Translations under genes and position numbers: made by a program
IMG/VR virus record: IMGVR_UViG_3300029251_000026
Origin: a virus
Direction: 5' to 3' (one strand)
Length of the DNA stretch: 45,391 nucleotides
Shown: in pieces, positions 5,228-25,587 of the stretch
Layout: each line of letters begins with the position of its first letter
Numbering within the stretch: position 1 is the stretch's first letter
The notes under the pieces: generated by a model
The model's database searches: none
What the model saw: the letters and a program-made list of their open reading frames with translations, nothing else
Told to the model about the DNA's origin: nothing

Positions 5228-6301
5228 AATAGACGCGATTTTCCCGCTATCGCGCGCTTGCTGAAATTCCGCAATACGATCGGCGGCAGACGCAAATGCC
5301 TCGTCAGAGAGGTGCGTATAAATTCGCGCGGTCATAGCGATGCTTTTGTGCCCCATGAGTTCTTTTGCTACATTGATAGGTACGCCTGCGGTTTGCAAAT
5401 CGGTTGCAAAAGTGTGACGCATACAGTATGGAGTGAGGTCTTCGGCTACTTTAGATGTCTCTGGTATAATAGTTTTGCGGAAAGTCTTTGCACCCATGTC
5501 AATATCAAGAGCACGCTTAAAAGTCTGCCACATGTGATACATGGAAGATATGCTATATGGAGCGCCAGTTATCGGCTGAGTAAAGATATATCCTGTGCCT
5601 CCGGTGAGATACGGACGCAATGCAGGATTGATAGGGACGGAACGATCGCCGTAGTCGGTCTTTGCTGAATGCAGGATTATTCTGTTTTCGCTCAAACGCA
5701 CATCTTCCCATTTGGCTTTGCGAGTTTCAACCGGACGCGCACCAGTGTAAAGCATAAACAAAACCCAAAAACCGGCGCGATGTGTTTTGCAGACGTTGAG
5801 TATATGTTTCCGCTCATCTGCGGTAATGGCTCTGTGTGTACCTCTTTCTGCTGTTGGCATAGTGATTCCCTCGGAAGGGTCAAATGTGAGTATGCGCTCT
5901 ATACGAGCCTGCTTAAACGCAGCTCTAATGAATGTGATTAGTTTGGTTGCGAGGGAAAAGGACTTTCCGGCAACCTCGTTCATAATACGCTGTAAATGCG
6001 CTGACTTAACATCGCACAGCCGCATATTCCCGATGACCGGAGAGATATAATTTTTTTGCATGCCAACCATGTTTCGATATGTGCTATTTGCTACCGTGGT
6101 CTTTTTGTAGGTCTCCAGATAATCTGTAAACCACTTATCAACTGTGGTATTTTCGTTAATAATGTCGATACCCTGTTCAAGACGGCGTTTCTTCTCCTCC
6201 ACCTTTCGCCACAAATCGCGTTGCGTCTTTGCACGGACATTGTAGCGCTTGCCCGCAAACGAGAATGATTCACGATAATATCCATCTTTGTTTTTATTCA
6301 T
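5222..6301 (-). CDS. int: Tyrosine recombinase (phage integrase)
   Basis: 359 aa. C-terminal catalytic signature is CMRHTFATDL ... GHKSIAMTARIYTH (H-x-x-R and the Tyr nucleophile). AGGAGG RBS upstream. Confidence 0.9.
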   Translation of the reverse strand: MNKNKDGYYRESFSFAGKRYNVRAKTQRDLWRKVEEKKRRLEQGIDIINENTTVDKWFTDYLETYKKTTVANSTYRNMVGMQKNYISPVIGNMRLCDVKSAHLQRIMNEVAGKSFSLATKLITFIRAAFKQARIERILTFDPSEGITMPTAERGTHRAITADERKHILNVCKTHRAGFWVLFMLYTGARPVETRKAKWEDVRLSENRIILHSAKTDYGDRSVPINPALRPYLTGGTGYIFTQPITGAPYSISSMYHMWQTFKRALDIDMGAKTFRKTIIPETSKVAEDLTPYCMRHTFATDLQTAGVPINVAKELMGHKSIAMTARIYTHLSDEAFASAADRIAEFQQARDSGKIASIR

Positions 6302-20462: not shown

Positions 20463-20732
20463 ATGTCGAAGAAAAAGAAAGTCAACCCATACCGAATACC
20501 GGCGACGCAGGGTGACATAGAAAAAGCCAAACGAGACGCAACGAACACGGCGGTTGCGTCTACATGGGCAATTATGTTTAGCGTTCTACGGGATAAAGAA
20601 GGGTACGACTATGACCGATTACGGCGGATATGGGACGAAACAAACTACCTCGCAGACAGCATCGCCCGAAAATACGTTAAAATCGACGATCTGATTGAAG
20701 AACTGCGGGAGAATGGAATAGCATTAGCATGA
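20463..20732 (+). CDS. Hypothetical protein
   Basis: ATG 7 nt after ggagg. The track ORF was trimmed from 20442. Confidence 0.5.
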   Translation: MSKKKKVNPYRIPATQGDIEKAKRDATNTAVASTWAIMFSVLRDKEGYDYDRLRRIWDETNYLADSIARKYVKIDDLIEELRENGIALA

Positions 20733-20944
20733 AAAAGAAAAGCGAATGCGCTGGGTGCGCATACTGGCGGGTACTGGGTACAAGCCAAGGGTCTAAGCTA
20801 TGGGCGTGTCATTATTTGATCGACACGGGGAAATCGCGCGGATGTGAACCGGGTGTGGGTTGCGTCCGCAAGGCGGCGAGAATCAGCCGCCGCAGGCGAT
20901 ATACACAGCATGGTGTGGAGGAGGTAGTGGCACACGACGACTAA
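20729..20944 (+). CDS. Hypothetical Cys-rich protein
   Basis: ATGA-coupled. CAGCAYW...CHY...C...C pattern. Confidence 0.45.
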   Translation: MKKKSECAGCAYWRVLGTSQGSKLWACHYLIDTGKSRGCEPGVGCVRKAARISRRRRYTQHGVEEVVAHDD

Positions 20945-21347
20945 AGAATGGCTCAGACGAGGGATTGATCTGGAAAAATCAATCTCTGCACTGGAAGAAG
21001 CACGAGTAAGGGCGTGGACGCGGGCGACAAGCGCAACAGCGACGATCAAGGACACGCCGGGCGGCGGCGGTGACGTGACCGCAAACAAGGCGGATGCGTA
21101 TCTTGCCCTGTCCGAGAAGATACAGCGAGAGCAGGAACGGCTTGCACTGATTAAGGCCGAGATTATCAGCACAACGGCTAAGGTACAGGATGCGGCGCTG
21201 CGGGCGCTGCTGATCGAACATTACGTGAACGGTAGAACGTGGAGAGAGACCGCCGAAAAGATACACTACAACGAGGATCATGTGCGCGGACGGATGCACG
21301 TTCGCGCCCTGCGGGAAGTGGAGAAGTTATTAACAGATTGTGCATGA
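20934..21347 (+). CDS. ArpU/RinA/DUF1492-like late transcriptional regulator; apparent ACG start (conservative GTG start at 21075)
   Basis: The frame is open from 20928. TTKEWLRRGIDLEKSISALEEARVRAWTRATSATATIKDTPGGGG...LLIEHYVNGRTWRETAEKIHYNEDHVRGRMHVRALREVEKLL fits the full-length family layout. GGAGGAGG lies at 20917-20924. There is no ATG/GTG/TTG before 21075. Confidence 0.5.
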   Translation, partial: TTTKEWLRRGIDLEKSISALEEARVRAWTRATSATATIKDTPGGGGDVTANKADAYLALSEKIQREQERLALIKAEIISTTAKVQDAALRALLIEHYVNGRTWRETAEKIHYNEDHVRGRMHVRALREVEKLLTDCA

Positions 21348-21361
21348 ATCTGTGGAAAACT

Positions 21362-21395
21362 TACCACACTATACCACAAAAACTGGTGTTATAAT
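21362..21395 (+). promoter_or_regulatory. Extended -10 promoter (TGtTATAAT) with tandem TACCACA heptamers in place of a -35
   Basis: tgttataat 21387-21395. taccaca at 21362-21368 and 21372-21378, 10 bp apart. Confidence 0.5.
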
Positions 21396-21476
21396 AGTAT
21401 TGTGATAAAAGCTCGTAAGAGCAGAATCACGGAGTTTCGTTCCTCCGCTTTCAGCCCGCCGAAAGGCGGGCACACG

Positions 21477-21504
21477 CCCGGAAGCCTGCGTGAGGGCTGA
21501 CGGG
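21477..21504 (+). repeat. ncRNA hairpin module M1
   Basis: CCCG gaa GCC tgcgtgag GGC tga CGGG. Confidence 0.7.
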
Positions 21505-21570
21505 TGACAAGCCTTTCTGTTTAACCCCAAATACCTACTTAAAGCGGTGGGGAGACCTGCCGCTGACCTG

Positions 21571-21598
21571 CTCCAAAGTCTGCATGAGGGCAGAGGAG
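21571..21598 (+). repeat. ncRNA hairpin module M2
   Basis: CTCC aaa GTC tgcatgag GGC aga GGAG. Confidence 0.7.
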
Positions 21599-21678
21599 CA
21601 AAACGCCTTTCGCGGAACGAAGGCATTGATTATCCTTTCTATTCTTTCGGCGTGTCTTTTGCGCGGCACGCCGATATG

Positions 21679-21706
21679 CTCCAAAGCCTGCATGAGGGTG
21701 ACGGAG
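21679..21706 (+). repeat. ncRNA hairpin module M3
   Basis: CTCC aaa GCC tgcatgag GGT gac GGAG. Confidence 0.7.
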
Positions 21707-21773
21707 TAATAACATATACGCTAAAATTGAGAATGTGTTGCGGTGTCTGCGGGCAACAGTCAACGCAAACATG

Positions 21774-21801
21774 CCCGGATGGCTGCGTGAGGCCGGACGG
21801 G
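21774..21801 (+). repeat. ncRNA hairpin module M4
   Basis: CCCG gat GGC tgcgtgag GCC gga CGGG. Confidence 0.7.
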
Positions 21802-21886
21802 TAACGTATGGAATCTTTTTAGCCAAGGGCAACGTGGCGGAATTTTGGCAAGCCTTGCATGGTGGACAACGTGCAAGGCAATCTGT

Positions 21887-21912
21887 TCCCGAAGCTGCAT
21901 GAGGCAGAGGGA
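21887..21912 (+). repeat. ncRNA hairpin module M5
   Basis: TCCC gaa GC tgcatgag GC aga GGGA. Confidence 0.65.
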
Positions 21913-22510
21913 GCAAAACGCCTCCAACGAGGACGATGATATTCGGACAGCTCGGAAAGACGAGCACTGTTTCCGAACAATGCTGGACTGCTGCAACAGT
22001 TCGGCAGAGTTTCGCGGGTGCTTGCAGGCACGCCGCAACCGGGGTCGCTCCCCGCTGTAACCTAATAAGGGAATCAGCCGGATTACAGACCGATAGCAAC
22101 TGCGACACGACGGAGAGCAACGCCGAACAGCCCATAATGAGAGGGAGAGTGCTGACCGGATAAGCACTCACACGGACTTAGTGAGCCGAGAAGCAAAACC
22201 ACCGGTACAAAGTTACAAAGCCGATACGGCGCTTCGGGCGGCTAAGTACACGCCGCGAAAGAGCACCAGCTGCTTATCTCTTGTAAGCATACCTAATCAT
22301 CAGGACGGAAACACAAGTAAACTTGCGAAAGTGAGGTTATTACCTTTCTGGATTTCATACAACCGTTCTGGACAGCGGCGCAAGCCTCGGTAAAAGCCCG
22401 ACGTACAGACGCGACGATAGCGCCCATACCTCCCTGTGGAGGTATACCGGTTTGCATAGTTGCTGAAAGCAGGTGCGAGTCCTGCAAAACCGAAACAGTC
22501 GTATAATGGG

Positions 22511-22548
22511 AAACCCCGCTCACCTTATGGCTTTGGTGAGCGGGGTTT
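22511..22548. terminator. Bidirectional terminator (end of the ncRNA and end of the minus-strand cassette)
   Basis: Perfect 14-bp stem aaaccccgctcacc / ggtgagcggggttt with a 10-nt loop. T-rich on the + side and tttccc on the - side. Confidence 0.7.
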
Positions 22549-22554
22549 GTCATG

Positions 22555-23544
22555 CTATTTAATTCTGTGGCCGAGACGGATTTCTTCTTCGGTCCAGCCG
22601 GCTTTACGGCGGAAGTAGTCTCTGCTCAACTCGGCTACATGCTTTTTACGGCAAGCAGGACAGTATTTAGACCGCGCGCCGCCGGTGAAATGCTCTCCGC
22701 ACATCATGCAGATGTGCGGTATTTTGGCGTGCGCCGCCGAAATGGCTTTACCTGCGCCTATGTGCAGGTTTCTTTCGCAACCGCATGATTTTACCTCGGA
22801 CGAGTAAAAGTACACTTGAGAGCGGTCAATCACGCGGCCACACTTTTTGCAGCGTGCGCGGAAACGGGTTTCTCCGTCCTCATTGCGATAGCGCTCTACG
22901 ATCTCAAATGGTCCGTCGGCTTGCAACAGCGGCGGGAGAACATAGCCGACAGCATGTGCTTCCACGATCTTGGGAAAGGGAACGAACTTCGGCGGGGCGG
23001 CGGTTATACCGCGCTTGCTGTCCGTCTTGCGCTGGCTCTCCTGTTTGGCTTTCTGGCGGCAGGCATCGGAACAGTAATACTTTTCCGGGCTGTCTGGCGG
23101 AATTTCAGCGCCGCAGACCTTACAAAATCGGTCGGTGTGGCGGATGCGCTCCTTGCGGTAGTCCTCCATATAGGCGCGGCCCTGGGCGTTATCGGCGGCT
23201 TTGACCGCCTCGGCGGCGCAGTCCGGACAATAGCGCTGGCGTGCTGACTTGACGATATACGGCTTGCCGCATACCTCGCACAAGTCGGTGGAGCCAAGAG
23301 GGCGCACGGTGCCTTTCTCGCGTTGACGGCGGTTTGCTTCGCGCTGGCGCTCGGCGCGGCAGTCCGGGCAGTACCACGCACGCGGACCACCATCAAACAC
23401 CTTGCCGCACTGGCGGCAGGTGCGCGGGCGCATGGTGGACTTAATGCTTTTTGCGGCGCAATCCGGGCACTTTACCTGATCATCGTACTGCGGCAGGAAA
23501 ACCCCACCGCAGGAGATGCATTTTCTGGGTGCTCTTGTTGGCAT
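22555..23544 (-). CDS. Multi-zinc-ribbon protein (six CxxCG...YCPxC-type repeats), function unknown
   Basis: 329 aa. CISCG..KCPDC, CRQCG..YCPDC, CEVCG..YCPDC, CKVCG..YCSDAC, CKKCG..SCGC, CMMCG..YCPAC. GGGAGG RBS. Confidence 0.7.
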   Translation of the reverse strand: MPTRAPRKCISCGGVFLPQYDDQVKCPDCAAKSIKSTMRPRTCRQCGKVFDGGPRAWYCPDCRAERQREANRRQREKGTVRPLGSTDLCEVCGKPYIVKSARQRYCPDCAAEAVKAADNAQGRAYMEDYRKERIRHTDRFCKVCGAEIPPDSPEKYYCSDACRQKAKQESQRKTDSKRGITAAPPKFVPFPKIVEAHAVGYVLPPLLQADGPFEIVERYRNEDGETRFRARCKKCGRVIDRSQVYFYSSEVKSCGCERNLHIGAGKAISAAHAKIPHICMMCGEHFTGGARSKYCPACRKKHVAELSRDYFRRKAGWTEEEIRLGHRIK

Positions 23545-23556
23545 GGCATTGCCTCC

Positions 23557-23892
23557 CTATGCGATGATGGAGATAACAACAGGATCGGAAATAATAACCT
23601 CACCTGCGTCCTCGCCGTACTCGTAAGAGTTACCCGCGATAACGGCGATGTGGCGACCGAAATAGTCACCGTTATAGCGCGCGGAATCATCCAGCGCGTT
23701 TACCTTGATACCGCATAATCCGTTGAGTTCCTCGCCGGTGTCCTCGCCGTTGTCCCAGATGTGGGAAACGTGGTCGATCTCACCGAGCGCGAAGGGCTCT
23801 TCCTGCTTGCGGACTGCGATGCATGCGTAATCAAAATCATATTCTTCCGCGACTGCGGCGATACGGTCGCGCTGCTCTTTGGTAAGGGTCAT
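23557..23892 (-). CDS. Small strongly acidic protein, hypothetical
   Basis: 111 aa with 23 Asp/Glu and 8 Lys/Arg. AGGAGG RBS and its own promoter. Confidence 0.6.
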   Translation of the reverse strand: MTLTKEQRDRIAAVAEEYDFDYACIAVRKQEEPFALGEIDHVSHIWDNGEDTGEELNGLCGIKVNALDDSARYNGDYFGRHIAVIAGNSYEYGEDAGEVIISDPVVISIIA

Positions 23893-23915
23893 TGTTGTTA
23901 CCTCCTGTTATGTAT

Positions 23916-23944
23916 ATTGTACCGCTGATTCGGTGCGGTGACAA
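23916..23944 (-). promoter_or_regulatory. Internal minus-strand promoter TTGTCA-17-TACAAT
   Basis: The plus strand reads attgta (23916-23921) and tgacaa (23939-23944), with a 17-bp spacer. An A-rich tract lies upstream. Confidence 0.5.
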
Positions 23945-24018
23945 GCGTTTTTTATATCTTCCGCCGCGGGTGCGTGAGCCGGGCGGGAGAATGAGAGGGG
24001 GTGGTGAGGCTCCCATGC

Positions 24019-24288
24019 TTAACGCGTCCAGGTGGATGTGATGGAAATGATCTCGTCGTCGGTTACGTCCTCGGTGCTGTTGGTGCTGAATGTGATCTCA
24101 AGCGGCGTGTGGCGCGGTGCGATGTAGTCATCGGTGATCCACTCGTCGCCGTCCTCGGTGACGATGGTAACAATGGGCGCGTCCTGCGTGCCGGTCGGGT
24201 AGTCGATGCGGTACACCTCGCCGGATATGGTGCGGGTGGCCGGTACGATCTGCAGCAGGGCGGCGATAATGGCGATTAGCTTAGTCAT
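24019..24288 (-). CDS. Small acidic protein with N-terminal hydrophobic (signal/anchor-like) segment
   Basis: 89 aa. MTKLIAIIAALLQIVPA... followed by Asp/Glu/Thr-rich sequence. Confidence 0.55.
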   Translation of the reverse strand: MTKLIAIIAALLQIVPATRTISGEVYRIDYPTGTQDAPIVTIVTEDGDEWITDDYIAPRHTPLEITFSTNSTEDVTDDEIISITSTWTR

Positions 24289-24335
24289 GATGGTTTTCCT
24301 TTCTGCCCTCGTGACCTCCGGGGCGGGTGGTTGGG

Positions 24336-24536
24336 TTAGTGCTGTGCGTCGTAAGTGGCGAGGGCGTTTGCAAGTCCAGCTTCAAAGCGTCTTTCGTTCT
24401 CTTCGGTGGTCTTGTTCATGTCGTTCTCAAAGCCGCAGCACGCCTTGTAAAGCGGGCAGCTTTCACAGTGGGCGAATGCGTACTTGTTGCAGAACTCAGT
24501 GCAGATGTGGCGCTCGATCTCGTAGGTGTAAGTCAT
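24336..24536 (-). CDS. Small Cys-rich protein, hypothetical
   Basis: 66 aa. CTEFC...CESCPLYKACCGF. GGAGGG RBS. Confidence 0.55.
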   Translation of the reverse strand: MTYTYEIERHICTEFCNKYAFAHCESCPLYKACCGFENDMNKTTEENERRFEAGLANALATYDAQH

Positions 24537-24539
24537 GGT

Positions 24540-24767
24540 TTAACCCTCCATCCAGATGTTATAAAGCTGCTCGGCCGTGAAGTCCTTGTAGTAGCCGATG
24601 CGCATTGTGTGTTCTTCTTCTTCCTCTACCCATGTGATGTAGAGGTTGTTCTCGGTGGTCTCGGCACTTACAAAGTAGCCGTTTACATCATAGTCGATCT
24701 TGGCGTTGTCGTACCAGCGGGTGATGCAGTGCTTTAAGTAGCTGCTGAGATTGGTCGTTGCGTTCAT
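24540..24767 (-). CDS. Small acidic protein, hypothetical
   Basis: RBS aaaggaag lies 8 nt upstream of the ATG at 24767. The track ORF extends to 24827 without RBS support. Confidence 0.5.
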   Translation of the reverse strand: MNATTNLSSYLKHCITRWYDNAKIDYDVNGYFVSAETTENNLYITWVEEEEEHTMRIGYYKDFTAEQLYNIWMEG

Positions 24768-24821
24768 ATTGATTACTTCCTTTCGGTGTTTGGTGTTTTC
24801 CTTTGTTGTGATTACAGTATA

Positions 24822-24907
24822 TATCATTGCTCAATGATAAACAATAGGCAAAGTGAACATAATTGAGCAATGATATTTAGTGGAATTGTATAATTGAGCA
24901 ATGATAA
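24822..24907. promoter_or_regulatory. Triplicated operator ATTGAGCAATGATA in the divergent control region
   Basis: tatcattgctcaatgata (24822-24839, quasi-palindrome, inverted copy). ataattgagcaatgata at 24859-24875 and 24890-24906, 31 bp apart. Confidence 0.65.
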
Positions 24908-24941
24908 CGGCTGTGGTACACTATAACAGGGAGGTGATACC

Positions 24942-25124
24942 ATGGCAGTTGACCCAAACGCACGAACACGGGCGAGTAATAAGTATAACGCGAAAGCATA
25001 CGATCGGCTTAATATCGTAGTACCCAAAGGAGAACGCGAACGCATTAAGGAGTATGCAGCCAGCAAGGGCGAGAGCCTGAACAGCTACGTCTATAAGCTG
25101 ATAACGGCAGACATGGACAAGTAA
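24942..25124 (+). CDS. Ribbon-helix-helix (Arc/CopG-like) DNA-binding protein
   Basis: 60 aa. NAKAYDRLNIVVPKGERERIKEYAASKGESLNSYVYKLI is a beta-strand plus two-helix RHH pattern. GGGAGGTG RBS and its own terminator. Confidence 0.6.
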   Translation: MAVDPNARTRASNKYNAKAYDRLNIVVPKGERERIKEYAASKGESLNSYVYKLITADMDK

Positions 25125-25140
25125 CATATTGTAAGCAGAC

Positions 25141-25176
25141 AAAAGCCGCTCCAAGCAACCGGGGCGGCTTTTTTGT
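25141..25176 (+). terminator. Rho-independent terminator after the RHH gene
   Basis: aaaagccgctcc...ggggcggctttttt. Confidence 0.7.
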
Positions 25177-25203: not shown

Positions 25204-25587
25204 ATGGACAAGCTGACCGCAAAGCAGCGGGCATGGATTGATTACTACAAGCAAGGCAAGACAGCTACAGAGGCGGCACGGCTTGCCGGTTACAAGGGAA
25301 ATAATCACCACACGATAGGCGCACAAAACTTAGCAAAACTAAGCAAATACGTATCAGACCGCGACGAGCTGTTAGACCGTGCCCGTGTGGCGGATATGGC
25401 GGAGATTAACGCATTTTGGAGCGACATCATGAGAGATGATACAGCGGACATCAAGGACCGTCTGAAAGCCTCTGAGCTGCGCGCACGGAGTATCGGCGCA
25501 TTTATCGAGCGTCGGGAAATCGTAGGAGCGCAGACGATCACGGTAAAGCTGCTGGACGATGATGAGGAAATGAAAGATACAGAGTAA
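25204..25587 (+). CDS. terS: Terminase small subunit
   Basis: 127 aa. LTAKQRAWIDYYKQGKTATEAARLAGYKG...AQNL is the typical Terminase_2/P27-type N-terminal HTH. Confidence 0.75.
   Translation: MDKLTAKQRAWIDYYKQGKTATEAARLAGYKGNNHHTIGAQNLAKLSKYVSDRDELLDRARVADMAEINAFWSDIMRDDTADIKDRLKASELRARSIGAFIERREIVGAQTITVKLLDDDEEMKDTE

Follow-up and report, generated by a model that had tools for sequence, protein, structure and literature searches.

In Gram-positive mobile elements, the large leader RNA conAn2 (260–600 nucleotides (nt)) causes processive antitermination and works with a small protein that is encoded next to it (PMC8191782). Conserved hairpins and loops are the active parts of conAn2 and of the put and EAR RNAs, all of which are structured 5′ leaders of long mobile-element operons positioned upstream of intrinsic terminators. 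Here we describe an RNA of similar placement that is encoded in 45,391 nt of viral DNA (IMG/VR record IMGVR_UViG_3300029251_000026); this whole stretch is referred to as the window. The RNA is a folded non-coding unit of ~1.15 kb, and its front part (the 5′ third to 40%) is occupied by a variable-copy array of hairpins, which we call modules. Compared with put, EAR and conAn2, it is 2–15 times longer, carries a tandem array of one hairpin type that varies in number, ends in a long-stem terminator with antisense genes after it, and is known here from sequence alone. It has no Rfam similarity to put or EAR. The layout of an antiterminator leader was found at this locus, with a promoter-like element at 21387–21395, terminators at 22506–22553 and 25141–25172 and, in the most distant relative (lineage L329), a module in a same-strand leader.

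The order of late regulator, promoter, terminated leader RNA and late genes is also shared with phage lambda, in which PR′, the 6S RNA and tR′ act with Q, and lambda N-nut offers a precedent for hairpins of the nascent RNA as loading sites, as is proposed below. Unlike in lambda, the regulator has a sigma-region-4 fold and is not Q, no boxA/boxB-like motif is present, and the leader has six times the length of 6S RNA.

Two other groups of RNAs invite comparison. GOLLD and ROOL are very large structured non-coding RNAs of temperate phages of Gram-positive bacteria and, like the RNA described here, contain many hairpins and tetraloops. However, our RNA matches neither covariance model, the window has no tRNA or tmRNA gene, and the variable-copy array, the strict linkage to a late regulator and promoter and the narrow distribution are further differences. 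CsrB, RsmZ and CrcZ resemble it in having repeated hairpins with one loop motif on variable stems and in varying copy number; a repeated conserved loop in variable copy number was found here in both the lineage of the window (W-type, 2–5 modules) and a second lineage, G2 (2–4 modules). In contrast to those sponges, the consensus YGCRYGAG of 323 loops has no GGA, ANGGA or CA-rich element, the units are ~100 nt apart and each includes a second hairpin, and the RNA is phage-encoded and located at a late promoter. Searches of Rfam 15 gave no match at the gathering score for the whole window, at E ≤ 10 for 21200–22700, or at E ≤ 0.1 for five homologous loci.

Five hairpin modules are clustered within 420 nt

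A first-pass annotation of the window had described five copies of a hairpin, M1 to M5. On rereading of the letters, their sequences and positions proved exact, and all five are on the plus strand: the core hairpins span 21477–21504 (M1), 21571–21598 (M2), 21679–21706 (M3), 21774–21801 (M4) and 21887–21912 (M5), and the whole modules 21471–21510, 21565–21604, 21673–21712, 21768–21807 and 21880–21919, respectively. The loop is UGCGUGAG in M1 and M4 and UGCAUGAG in M2, M3 and M5. Start-to-start spacings of 94, 108, 95 and 113 nt and the presence of GCAAAACGCC directly 3′ of both M2 and M5 had also been reported and are likewise accurate. A covariance model of the module matched exactly these five sites (E ≤ 1e-12) and none elsewhere in the window, with scores of 50.5 bits for M1 (E 1.2e-12), 57.9 for M2, 53.4 for M3, 55.1 for M4 and 51.3 for M5. 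The motif CTGCRTGAGG occurs five times in the 45-kb window (0.24 expected), always on the plus strand and within 420 nt (21486–21904), and a count of five was reached in none of 100 shuffles.

A direct-repeat search returned a repeat unit of 41 nt, with copies that are 63–78% identical at spacings of 94, 108, 95 and 112 nt. Predicted folds and inverted repeats show that the units recur regularly, each being a hairpin followed by a module. The hairpin GCGGUGGG-GAGA-CCUGCCGC is predicted 5′ of M2, GGCGUG...CACGCC is predicted 5′ of M3, and GCCUUGCA...UGCAAGGC (21852–21879, inverted repeat I5) stands 5′ of M5, all on the plus strand. Folding of the plus strand over 21400–21960 compared with shuffled sequence gave z = −6.6, and the minus strand gave z = −3.3. 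A sixth copy of the short repeat TGCGTGAG, at 23971, was considered as a further module and was rejected by the module covariance model; it lies in a GC-rich hairpin (23961–23990) just outside the minus-strand gene 24019–24288. A deletion in the relative L040 has fused M4 with this copy, which shows that recombination can occur at the short repeat.

The modules are maintained as RNA structure in related phages

Homologues were found in more than 200 phage contigs, comprising five related lineages and one distant single-module relative. A two-motif pattern scan of IMG/VR gave, among the matches listed, about 85 true homologues of 21300–22561 out of 120, and contig look-ups after a profile search for the upstream protein added diverged members. 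With that protein as the anchor, 80 further loci were obtained, of which 79 have the array downstream; the remaining locus is ended by the end of its contig. The W-type RNA is ~1.15 kb long and contains 2–5 modules. The other lineages, characterized by the identity of their regulator to that of the window, are G2 (50%; RNA ~0.9 kb, 2–4 modules), L330 (64%; ~1.16 kb, 5 modules), L331 (57%; ~1.0 kb, 4 modules), L332 (65%; ~0.77 kb, 2 modules) and the most distant, L329 (43%; a short leader only, 1 module). These numbers do not agree with the fixed platform of five that the first-pass annotation had envisaged. Even relatives that are 90–98% identical overall differ in having two, three, four or five modules; the differences are deletions with their ends inside modules, and hybrid modules are seen in two contigs (L117 and L040). 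Since five is not conserved, a rigid five-fold architecture is disfavoured, and the sites are more probably additive or redundant.

Alignment of the homologous loci shows that the array is present and that its stems covary, so that the modules and their pairings are kept. For a pairing test, 63 distinct modules from the window and its homologues were aligned in loop register, and eight pairs were scored, five in the outer helix and three in the inner helix, with a 3x3 internal loop between the helices and a terminal loop of 8 nt. Standard pairs made up 95.8% of the pair cells, compared with 79.3% in shuffles and 29–54% when the 3′ partners were slid. Three of the eight pairs are altered on both sides (U-A/C-G; C-G/G-C/A-U; G-C/C-G/U-G/A-U), and among relatives the inner helix of M4 changes from GGC/GCC to GAC/GUC and that of M5 from GC/GC to AC/GU. 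G-U pairs, which would be C-A on the opposite strand, are frequent, and the plus strand is therefore the folding one. The proposal that selection acts on RNA structure and not on a coding sequence or double-stranded DNA was borne out by the covariation, the strand-specific G-U pairs and the lack of codon periodicity described below. The outer helix is indeed paired, but it also includes a flanking G-C or G-U pair, so that its length is 5–6 bp rather than the 4 bp that had been drawn.

The loop, which had been called invariant, is a conserved displayed element but does vary, with the consensus YGCRYGAG in relatives. Positions 4 and 5 across the 323 loops are AU in 202, GU in 70, AC in 40 and GC in 11, and one relative has the loop CGCAUGAG. 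One copy in the G2 lineage bears the same loop on a continuous stem without the internal loop; the loop is thus the conserved element and the stem its scaffolding. No conserved pseudoknot partners of at least 6 nt were found for the module loops elsewhere in the RNA, and loop-complementary targets (CTCRYGCA) elsewhere in the phage occur at chance level only.

According to the IMG/VR scans the distribution is narrow, covering a few related gut-phage lineages. A scan of IMG/VR for an L329-type promoter followed by a module gave no match, a scan for two loops of the CACG type gave only the known G2 lineage and chance matches, and blastn of the 1.3-kb region against the INPHARED phages gave none. 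The pattern CTGCRYGAGG...CTGCRYGAGG was too degenerate for genome contigs: among the matches listed, 120 of 120 were due to chance, mostly in high-GC genomes. The sample names of the relatives indicate human-gut metagenomes, and the best phage matches of the PBSX-type large terminase are to Thermoanaerobacterium and Clostridium phages, at 41–49% identity.

The array forms the front part of a longer RNA unit

The unit is predicted to occupy ~21402–22553, from an extended −10 promoter-like element to a long-stem terminator, and begins ~50 nt 3′ of the gene for a sigma-region-4-like late regulator. Ahead of the array, on the plus strand, it contains the nested hairpin GUGAU-aaaa-GCUC-GUAA-GAGC-aga-AUCAC (21402–21430), a pyrimidine-rich tract with UUCCUCC (21431–21453) and the GC-rich hairpin GCCCGCC-GAAA-GGCGGGC (21454–21471). 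The stems of the nested hairpin are compensated across lineages (GCUC/GAGC, GCCC/GGGC, GCAC/GUGC and GCUCC/GGAGC for one helix; GUGAU/AUCAC and GUGG/CCAC for the other), as are those of the GC-rich hairpin (GCCCGCC/GGCGGGC and CCCCUGC/GCGGGGG). The order of nested hairpin, pyrimidine tract, GC-rich hairpin, AYAY-type spacer and first module is kept in the long-RNA lineages, and in six lineages the loop of the first module is always 85–110 nt from the putative start.

Behind the array lies a structured 3′ domain of ~600 nt (21920–22505, plus strand), which was delineated by RNAalifold, helix-pair counts and tables of stem variants. RNAalifold predicts 96 pairs in this domain, 24 of them with compensatory changes. 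Its recognizable elements include the covarying hairpins GCUCG-GAAAGA-CGAGC (21950–21965) and AUACCUCC-CUGU-GGAGGUAU (22426–22445), the GNRA-capped hairpin GGC-GCAA-GCC (22377–22386), which elsewhere is UGA-GAGA-UCA, CGG-GAAA-CCG or GGA-GGAA-UCC, and the hairpin UCGG-UAAAAGC-CCGA (22387–22401). The three helices within 22377–22424 have 95.6% of their cells paired, compared with 80% in shuffles and 13–45% in slid alignments, and six of their twelve pairs are altered on both sides. A T-loop-like hairpin, GCAGG-UGCGAGU-CCUGC (22469–22485), also has a covarying stem; its 7-nt loop UGCGAGU is UGCRANY across lineages, and the first four bases, UGCR, are as in the module loops. The segment ~22100–22330 is lineage-specific and is missing from G2.

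The unit ends in a long-stem intrinsic terminator, AAACCCCGCUCACC-(10 nt)-GGUGAGCGGGGUUUGU followed by a U run (22506–22553, inverted repeat I1), with 19-nt arms that are 89% complementary and a stem of 14–19 bp. Being bidirectional, it serves as the terminator of the minus-strand gene 22555–23544 as well. Other lineages have a different terminator at the corresponding place, with compensated stems. Homology among relatives stops immediately 3′ of the terminator, where at least six different sequences come next.

No coding signature is present on either strand

The region had been taken to be untranslated in the first-pass annotation, and the comparison of relatives agrees with this on both strands. 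Codon periodicity was assessed from the variability of each codon position among ~60 relatives. Three-base periodicity is absent from the unit, the values being 0.044/0.052/0.040 for the minus-strand open reading frame (ORF) and 0.032/0.033/0.020 for a plus-strand ORF, compared with 0.075/0.073/0.137 for the coding end of the regulator gene. The lengths and frames of ORFs in the unit differ from relative to relative, and the array region is the least variable stretch of its neighbourhood. Identity between L330 and the window is 92.7% for the RNA but only 62% for the coding sequence of the adjacent regulator. A long minus-strand ORF (21539–22171, 210 aa) that runs antisense through the RNA is called a hypothetical protein in four relatives (L243, L244, L246 and L248); it is probably a mis-annotation arising from the base composition of the RNA. 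In one plus-strand frame the loop reads L-H/R-E-G, which we treat as a coincidence.

The upstream regulator and a putative late promoter

The gene immediately upstream (20937–21347, plus strand) encodes an Ltr-type late transcriptional regulator that is sigma-region-4-like and related to DUF1492/LtrB, as judged from its match to phrog_36 ('transcriptional regulator', E 1e-10) and from its model fold. The regulator or its homologues have sub-threshold Pfam matches to Phage_antitermQ, DUF1492 and Sigma70_r4_2; for the regulator and close homologues these fall below the cut-offs, with 17.1 versus 21.5 bits for DUF1492 and 18.7 versus 25.7 bits for Sigma70_r4_2. More distant homologues carry PF07374 (DUF1492) and PF04545 (Sigma70_r4). 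In an AlphaFold2 model (predicted local distance difference test score 87), the C-terminal ~60 aa superimpose on sigma region 4 with a root-mean-square deviation of 1.3–1.7 Å. A Q-type antiterminator was considered and rejected: the fold fits sigma region 4 only, the Phage_antitermQ match is below its cut-off, and no Q protein is among the structural matches of the regulator.

With a canonical start the regulator ORF is 21075–21347, and a conserved N-terminal helix (TKEWLRRG...) continues in frame from ~20937. The window has no ATG, GTG or TTG start for this helix (20930–21075); it has ACG where other lineages have ATG, with an in-frame stop just upstream, and in close relatives the ORF is 164–167 aa long. 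Directly 5′ of the regulator, at 20729–20944, lies a gene whose 71-aa product is rich in cysteine (CxxC...C...H...C...C) and has an arginine-rich tail, RKAARISRRRRY. This gene is present in every long-RNA lineage and was not detected in L329 or in the contigs L334–L336. Its product is a possible candidate for an RNA-binding partner.

Between the regulator gene and the RNA lies a putative late promoter (21363–21395, plus strand), which consists of two ACCACA repeats (21363–21368 and 21373–21378) 10 bp apart, ~15 nt 3′ of the regulator stop codon, and the extended −10 element TGTTATAAT (21387–21395); there is no −35 consensus. Neither the promoter motif TGTTATAATAGTATTGTG nor the repeat block recurs elsewhere in the window, and most module-bearing lineages have an equivalent TGnTAnAAT followed by RGTATY after the regulator stop codon. 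The sole other near-match to the motif, TGGTATAATAGTTTTGCG (three mismatches, 5462–5479), is antisense within the integrase gene. The DUF1492 and sigma70_r4 proteins that occupy this genome position are known as the late regulators LtrB and LtrA, which bind repeats just 3′ of their own gene and suffice for the whole late cluster from one promoter (PMC3753634). Because the regulator is of the Ltr type, we infer that 21387–21395 is the late promoter and that the RNA is the start of the late transcript and its first product.

Terminators and a variable island separate the RNA from terS

The array is 3.3 kb from terS, with variable cassettes between them. Outside the RNA, 22555–24827 forms a variable antisense accessory island on the minus strand that encodes a 329-aa multi-zinc-ribbon protein and four small ORFs and is flanked by bidirectional terminators on both sides. 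The segment 22562–23953 is missing or replaced in relatives; in three of them (L047, L036 and L100), 22561 abuts 23965. Islands of relatives hold other cargo or almost none (compare L047, L079, L331 and L332). An 'AcrVA2-like' 329-aa protein of L331 was considered as a homologue of the 329-aa protein of the window and is unrelated, and a PADLOC search with the island genes gave no match.

Beyond the island, an Arc-like repressor gene (60 aa, 24942–25124, plus strand) was recognized by matches to phrog_13890 and to Arc-like proteins. The surrounding region (24830–25172) has three operator-like copies of ATTGAGCAATGATA and an extended −10 promoter-like element, TGTATAAT, upstream of the gene. 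A strong terminator (25141–25172, plus strand), with 12 bp in its stem and then a T6 run, ends 31 nt before the terS start codon at 25204. Because only 31 nt separate the two, terS needs transcription through this terminator. Terminase_2 (TerS), Terminase_3 (TerL) and portal proteins are all encoded. Internal terminators are not in excess in the late operon (29, compared with 24.5 in shuffles).

The leaders of distant relatives are simpler. In L329 a lone module lies in a gap of ~220 nt between the regulator stop codon and late-type genes on the same strand. L334 (2930–3125) and L335 (2930–3115) lack modules and have a DUF1492-type regulator followed by a leader of ~200 nt with a pyrimidine-rich tract and a GC-rich hairpin; a canonical terminator closes the leader ~15 nt short of the first late gene (HNH). 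Because these two leaders end in a terminator, passage through terminators may be general in Ltr-type late leaders.

Possible functions of the RNA

We tentatively favour the reading that the RNA is a cis-acting late leader, whose hairpins would enable late transcription to reach terS either by loading a factor or by acting on RNA polymerase. We are led to it by the unique Ltr-type promoter, the fixed distance of the first module, the terminators before the late genes and the lack of room for a promoter before terS. The RNA would act in cis on its own transcription complex, and the displayed loops would be loading sites for a protein factor or would make direct contact with RNA polymerase, comparable to lambda nut, HK022 put or conAn2. 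The modified polymerase would then resist termination and pass the terminator of the RNA, the antisense island and the pre-terS terminator to reach the packaging and structural genes. Additional copies of the module would make loading more probable, and from unmodified complexes the 1.15-kb RNA would be set free as a stable by-product, just as lambda 6S RNA is at tR′.

Several points weigh against a cis-acting leader. The promoter and its start site are predictions from the DNA, as is any read-through. The terminator of the RNA has a stem of 14–19 bp and looks more like a designed transcript end, and stems of at least ~14 bp resist conAn antitermination (PMC10325885). Read-through of the long RNAs would meet convergent transcription from the antisense island on their 3′ side, and the extended −10 promoter of the Arc-like gene could serve terS instead. 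The putative terminator of the L329 leader is non-canonical, with its U-rich run ~10 nt past the stem. Known RNA antiterminators are single-copy and 70–600 nt long, and the variable copy number and the ornate 3′ domain of ~600 nt are unexplained by the model. A stronger version, that the RNA alone is a largely autonomous antiterminator of more than 1 kb whose one to five hairpins, tunable in number, reprogram RNA polymerase so that the late promoter reaches the packaging genes across the insulated antisense island, appears unlikely to us.

Nearly as likely as the cis-acting leader is a stand-alone, trans-acting RNA, in which the one to five hairpins would sequester or scaffold an RNA-binding protein of the host or the phage in the way of CsrB, RsmZ or CrcZ and the 3′ domain would provide stability or a second activity; antitermination and a decoy, both of which the first-pass annotation had raised, are compatible with the evidence. 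A trans-acting RNA would agree well with a discrete unit that in each of the long-RNA lineages is bounded by a promoter-like element and by a bidirectional long-stem terminator, and that is better conserved than its flanking genes. The loop is kept on covarying stems and even on stems of another architecture, and no conserved partner was found for it within the RNA, so that it is free to bind; two to five copies among near-identical phages are as expected of additive binding sites, and the GNRA loops and the T-loop-like hairpin are of a kind typically seen in RNAs that fold autonomously. However, the binding protein that is proposed remains a candidate, the loop lacks the GGA motif that is read by CsrA, and we know of no protein-binding site that it resembles. 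The L329 module, moreover, is in what appears to be a plain 5′ untranslated region with no 3′ domain, and the fixed distance of the first module (85–110 nt in six lineages) suits a co-transcriptional role better.

We give little weight to the possibility that the RNA is a processing or stability element of the late transcript, with the modules serving as endoribonuclease sites or as protective 5′ structures. Late transcripts under Ltr control are reported to be processed and to have several 5′ ends (PMC3753634), and the regular repetition of hairpin-then-module units would be consistent with such a function. A strong terminator and the antisense island nevertheless stand between the array and the late genes, and a conserved 3′ domain of 600 nt would be left unexplained.

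Still less probable is a self-assembling ornate RNA like GOLLD or ROOL, in which palindromic loop cores (CAUG and CGCG) would kiss to give a multimeric particle. A self-complementary CRYG core is present in 213 of the 323 loops, CGUG can pair with itself through wobble pairs, and the size, the prophage location and the richness in GNRA loops recall GOLLD and ROOL, which form RNA-only multimers (PMC12286853). The loops of G2 and L331, however, have mostly CACG cores, which pair neither with themselves nor with CAUG; one to five modules are hard to fit with a fixed symmetric architecture; and the Rfam searches show no resemblance to GOLLD or ROOL.

It is highly improbable that the locus acts at the DNA level, as a pac or cos packaging site, as iterons or as repeats bound by a protein, or that it codes for a protein. 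The position upstream of terS, the minus-strand ORF that gene callers place here in relatives and the plus-strand frame L-H/R-E-G, in which the Y of loop position 5 is a synonymous site, would be in keeping with one or the other, but G-U pairs hold the helices on one strand only, compensatory changes and GNRA loops are properties of RNA, three-base periodicity is absent, the ORFs are unstable, three of the module spacings (94, 95 and 113 nt) are not in frame, and the array is 3.3 kb from terS across variable cassettes.

Three other known kinds of element were also considered and rejected. An analogy to the packaging RNA (pRNA) of phi29 had been suggested in view of the packaging genes downstream. 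Against it stand the absence of a pRNA match in Rfam, the variable antisense island before terS and the CACG cores of G2 and L331, which could not supply the complementary loop pairs that close the intermolecular ring of pRNA on the portal, and the presence of TerS, TerL and portal genes speaks against a phi29-type motor without a small terminase. Type III antitoxins of the ToxI kind are head-to-tail, near-identical repeats of ~34–45 nt beside the gene of an endoribonuclease toxin, whereas the 41-nt repeats found here are only 63–78% identical and 94–113 nt apart, and no toxin-like gene is adjacent. A CRISPR array, or solitary CRISPR repeats, would show identical repeats with spacers that vary from strain to strain; the repeats of this locus differ in a compensatory manner, and the intervals are ~95% conserved among relatives and fold into hairpins.

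Novelty and significance

No published description of this RNA was found in the literature searched. A catalogue from 2023 lists 10,006 unnamed candidate structured RNAs from IMG/VR and may hold fragments of it (PMC10690425). The RNA is a new family of a known kind, that of large structured phage RNAs and leader RNAs, and is unusual in its size, its tandem array and its linkage to a late regulator. To our knowledge, few non-coding RNAs of bacteria or phages are near 1 kb with covariation throughout, and GOLLD, ROOL and OLE each gave unexpected biology.

The RNA is abundant in phage contigs of the human gut, in which its region is probably mis-annotated in current assemblies as a hypothetical minus-strand protein, and it has a clear genetic address at the late promoter beside an Ltr-type regulator. 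The natural range of one to five modules is a ready-made allelic series. A role in trans would point to an RNA-binding target in gut Bacillota. If late transcription is under the control of the RNA, the tolerance of islands between the late promoter and terS would be accounted for, and the RNA would represent a new class of RNA antitermination; should the RNA alone antiterminate, it would be the first RNA-based system of processive antitermination to serve a late operon in a Gram-positive phage and would far exceed all known ones in size.

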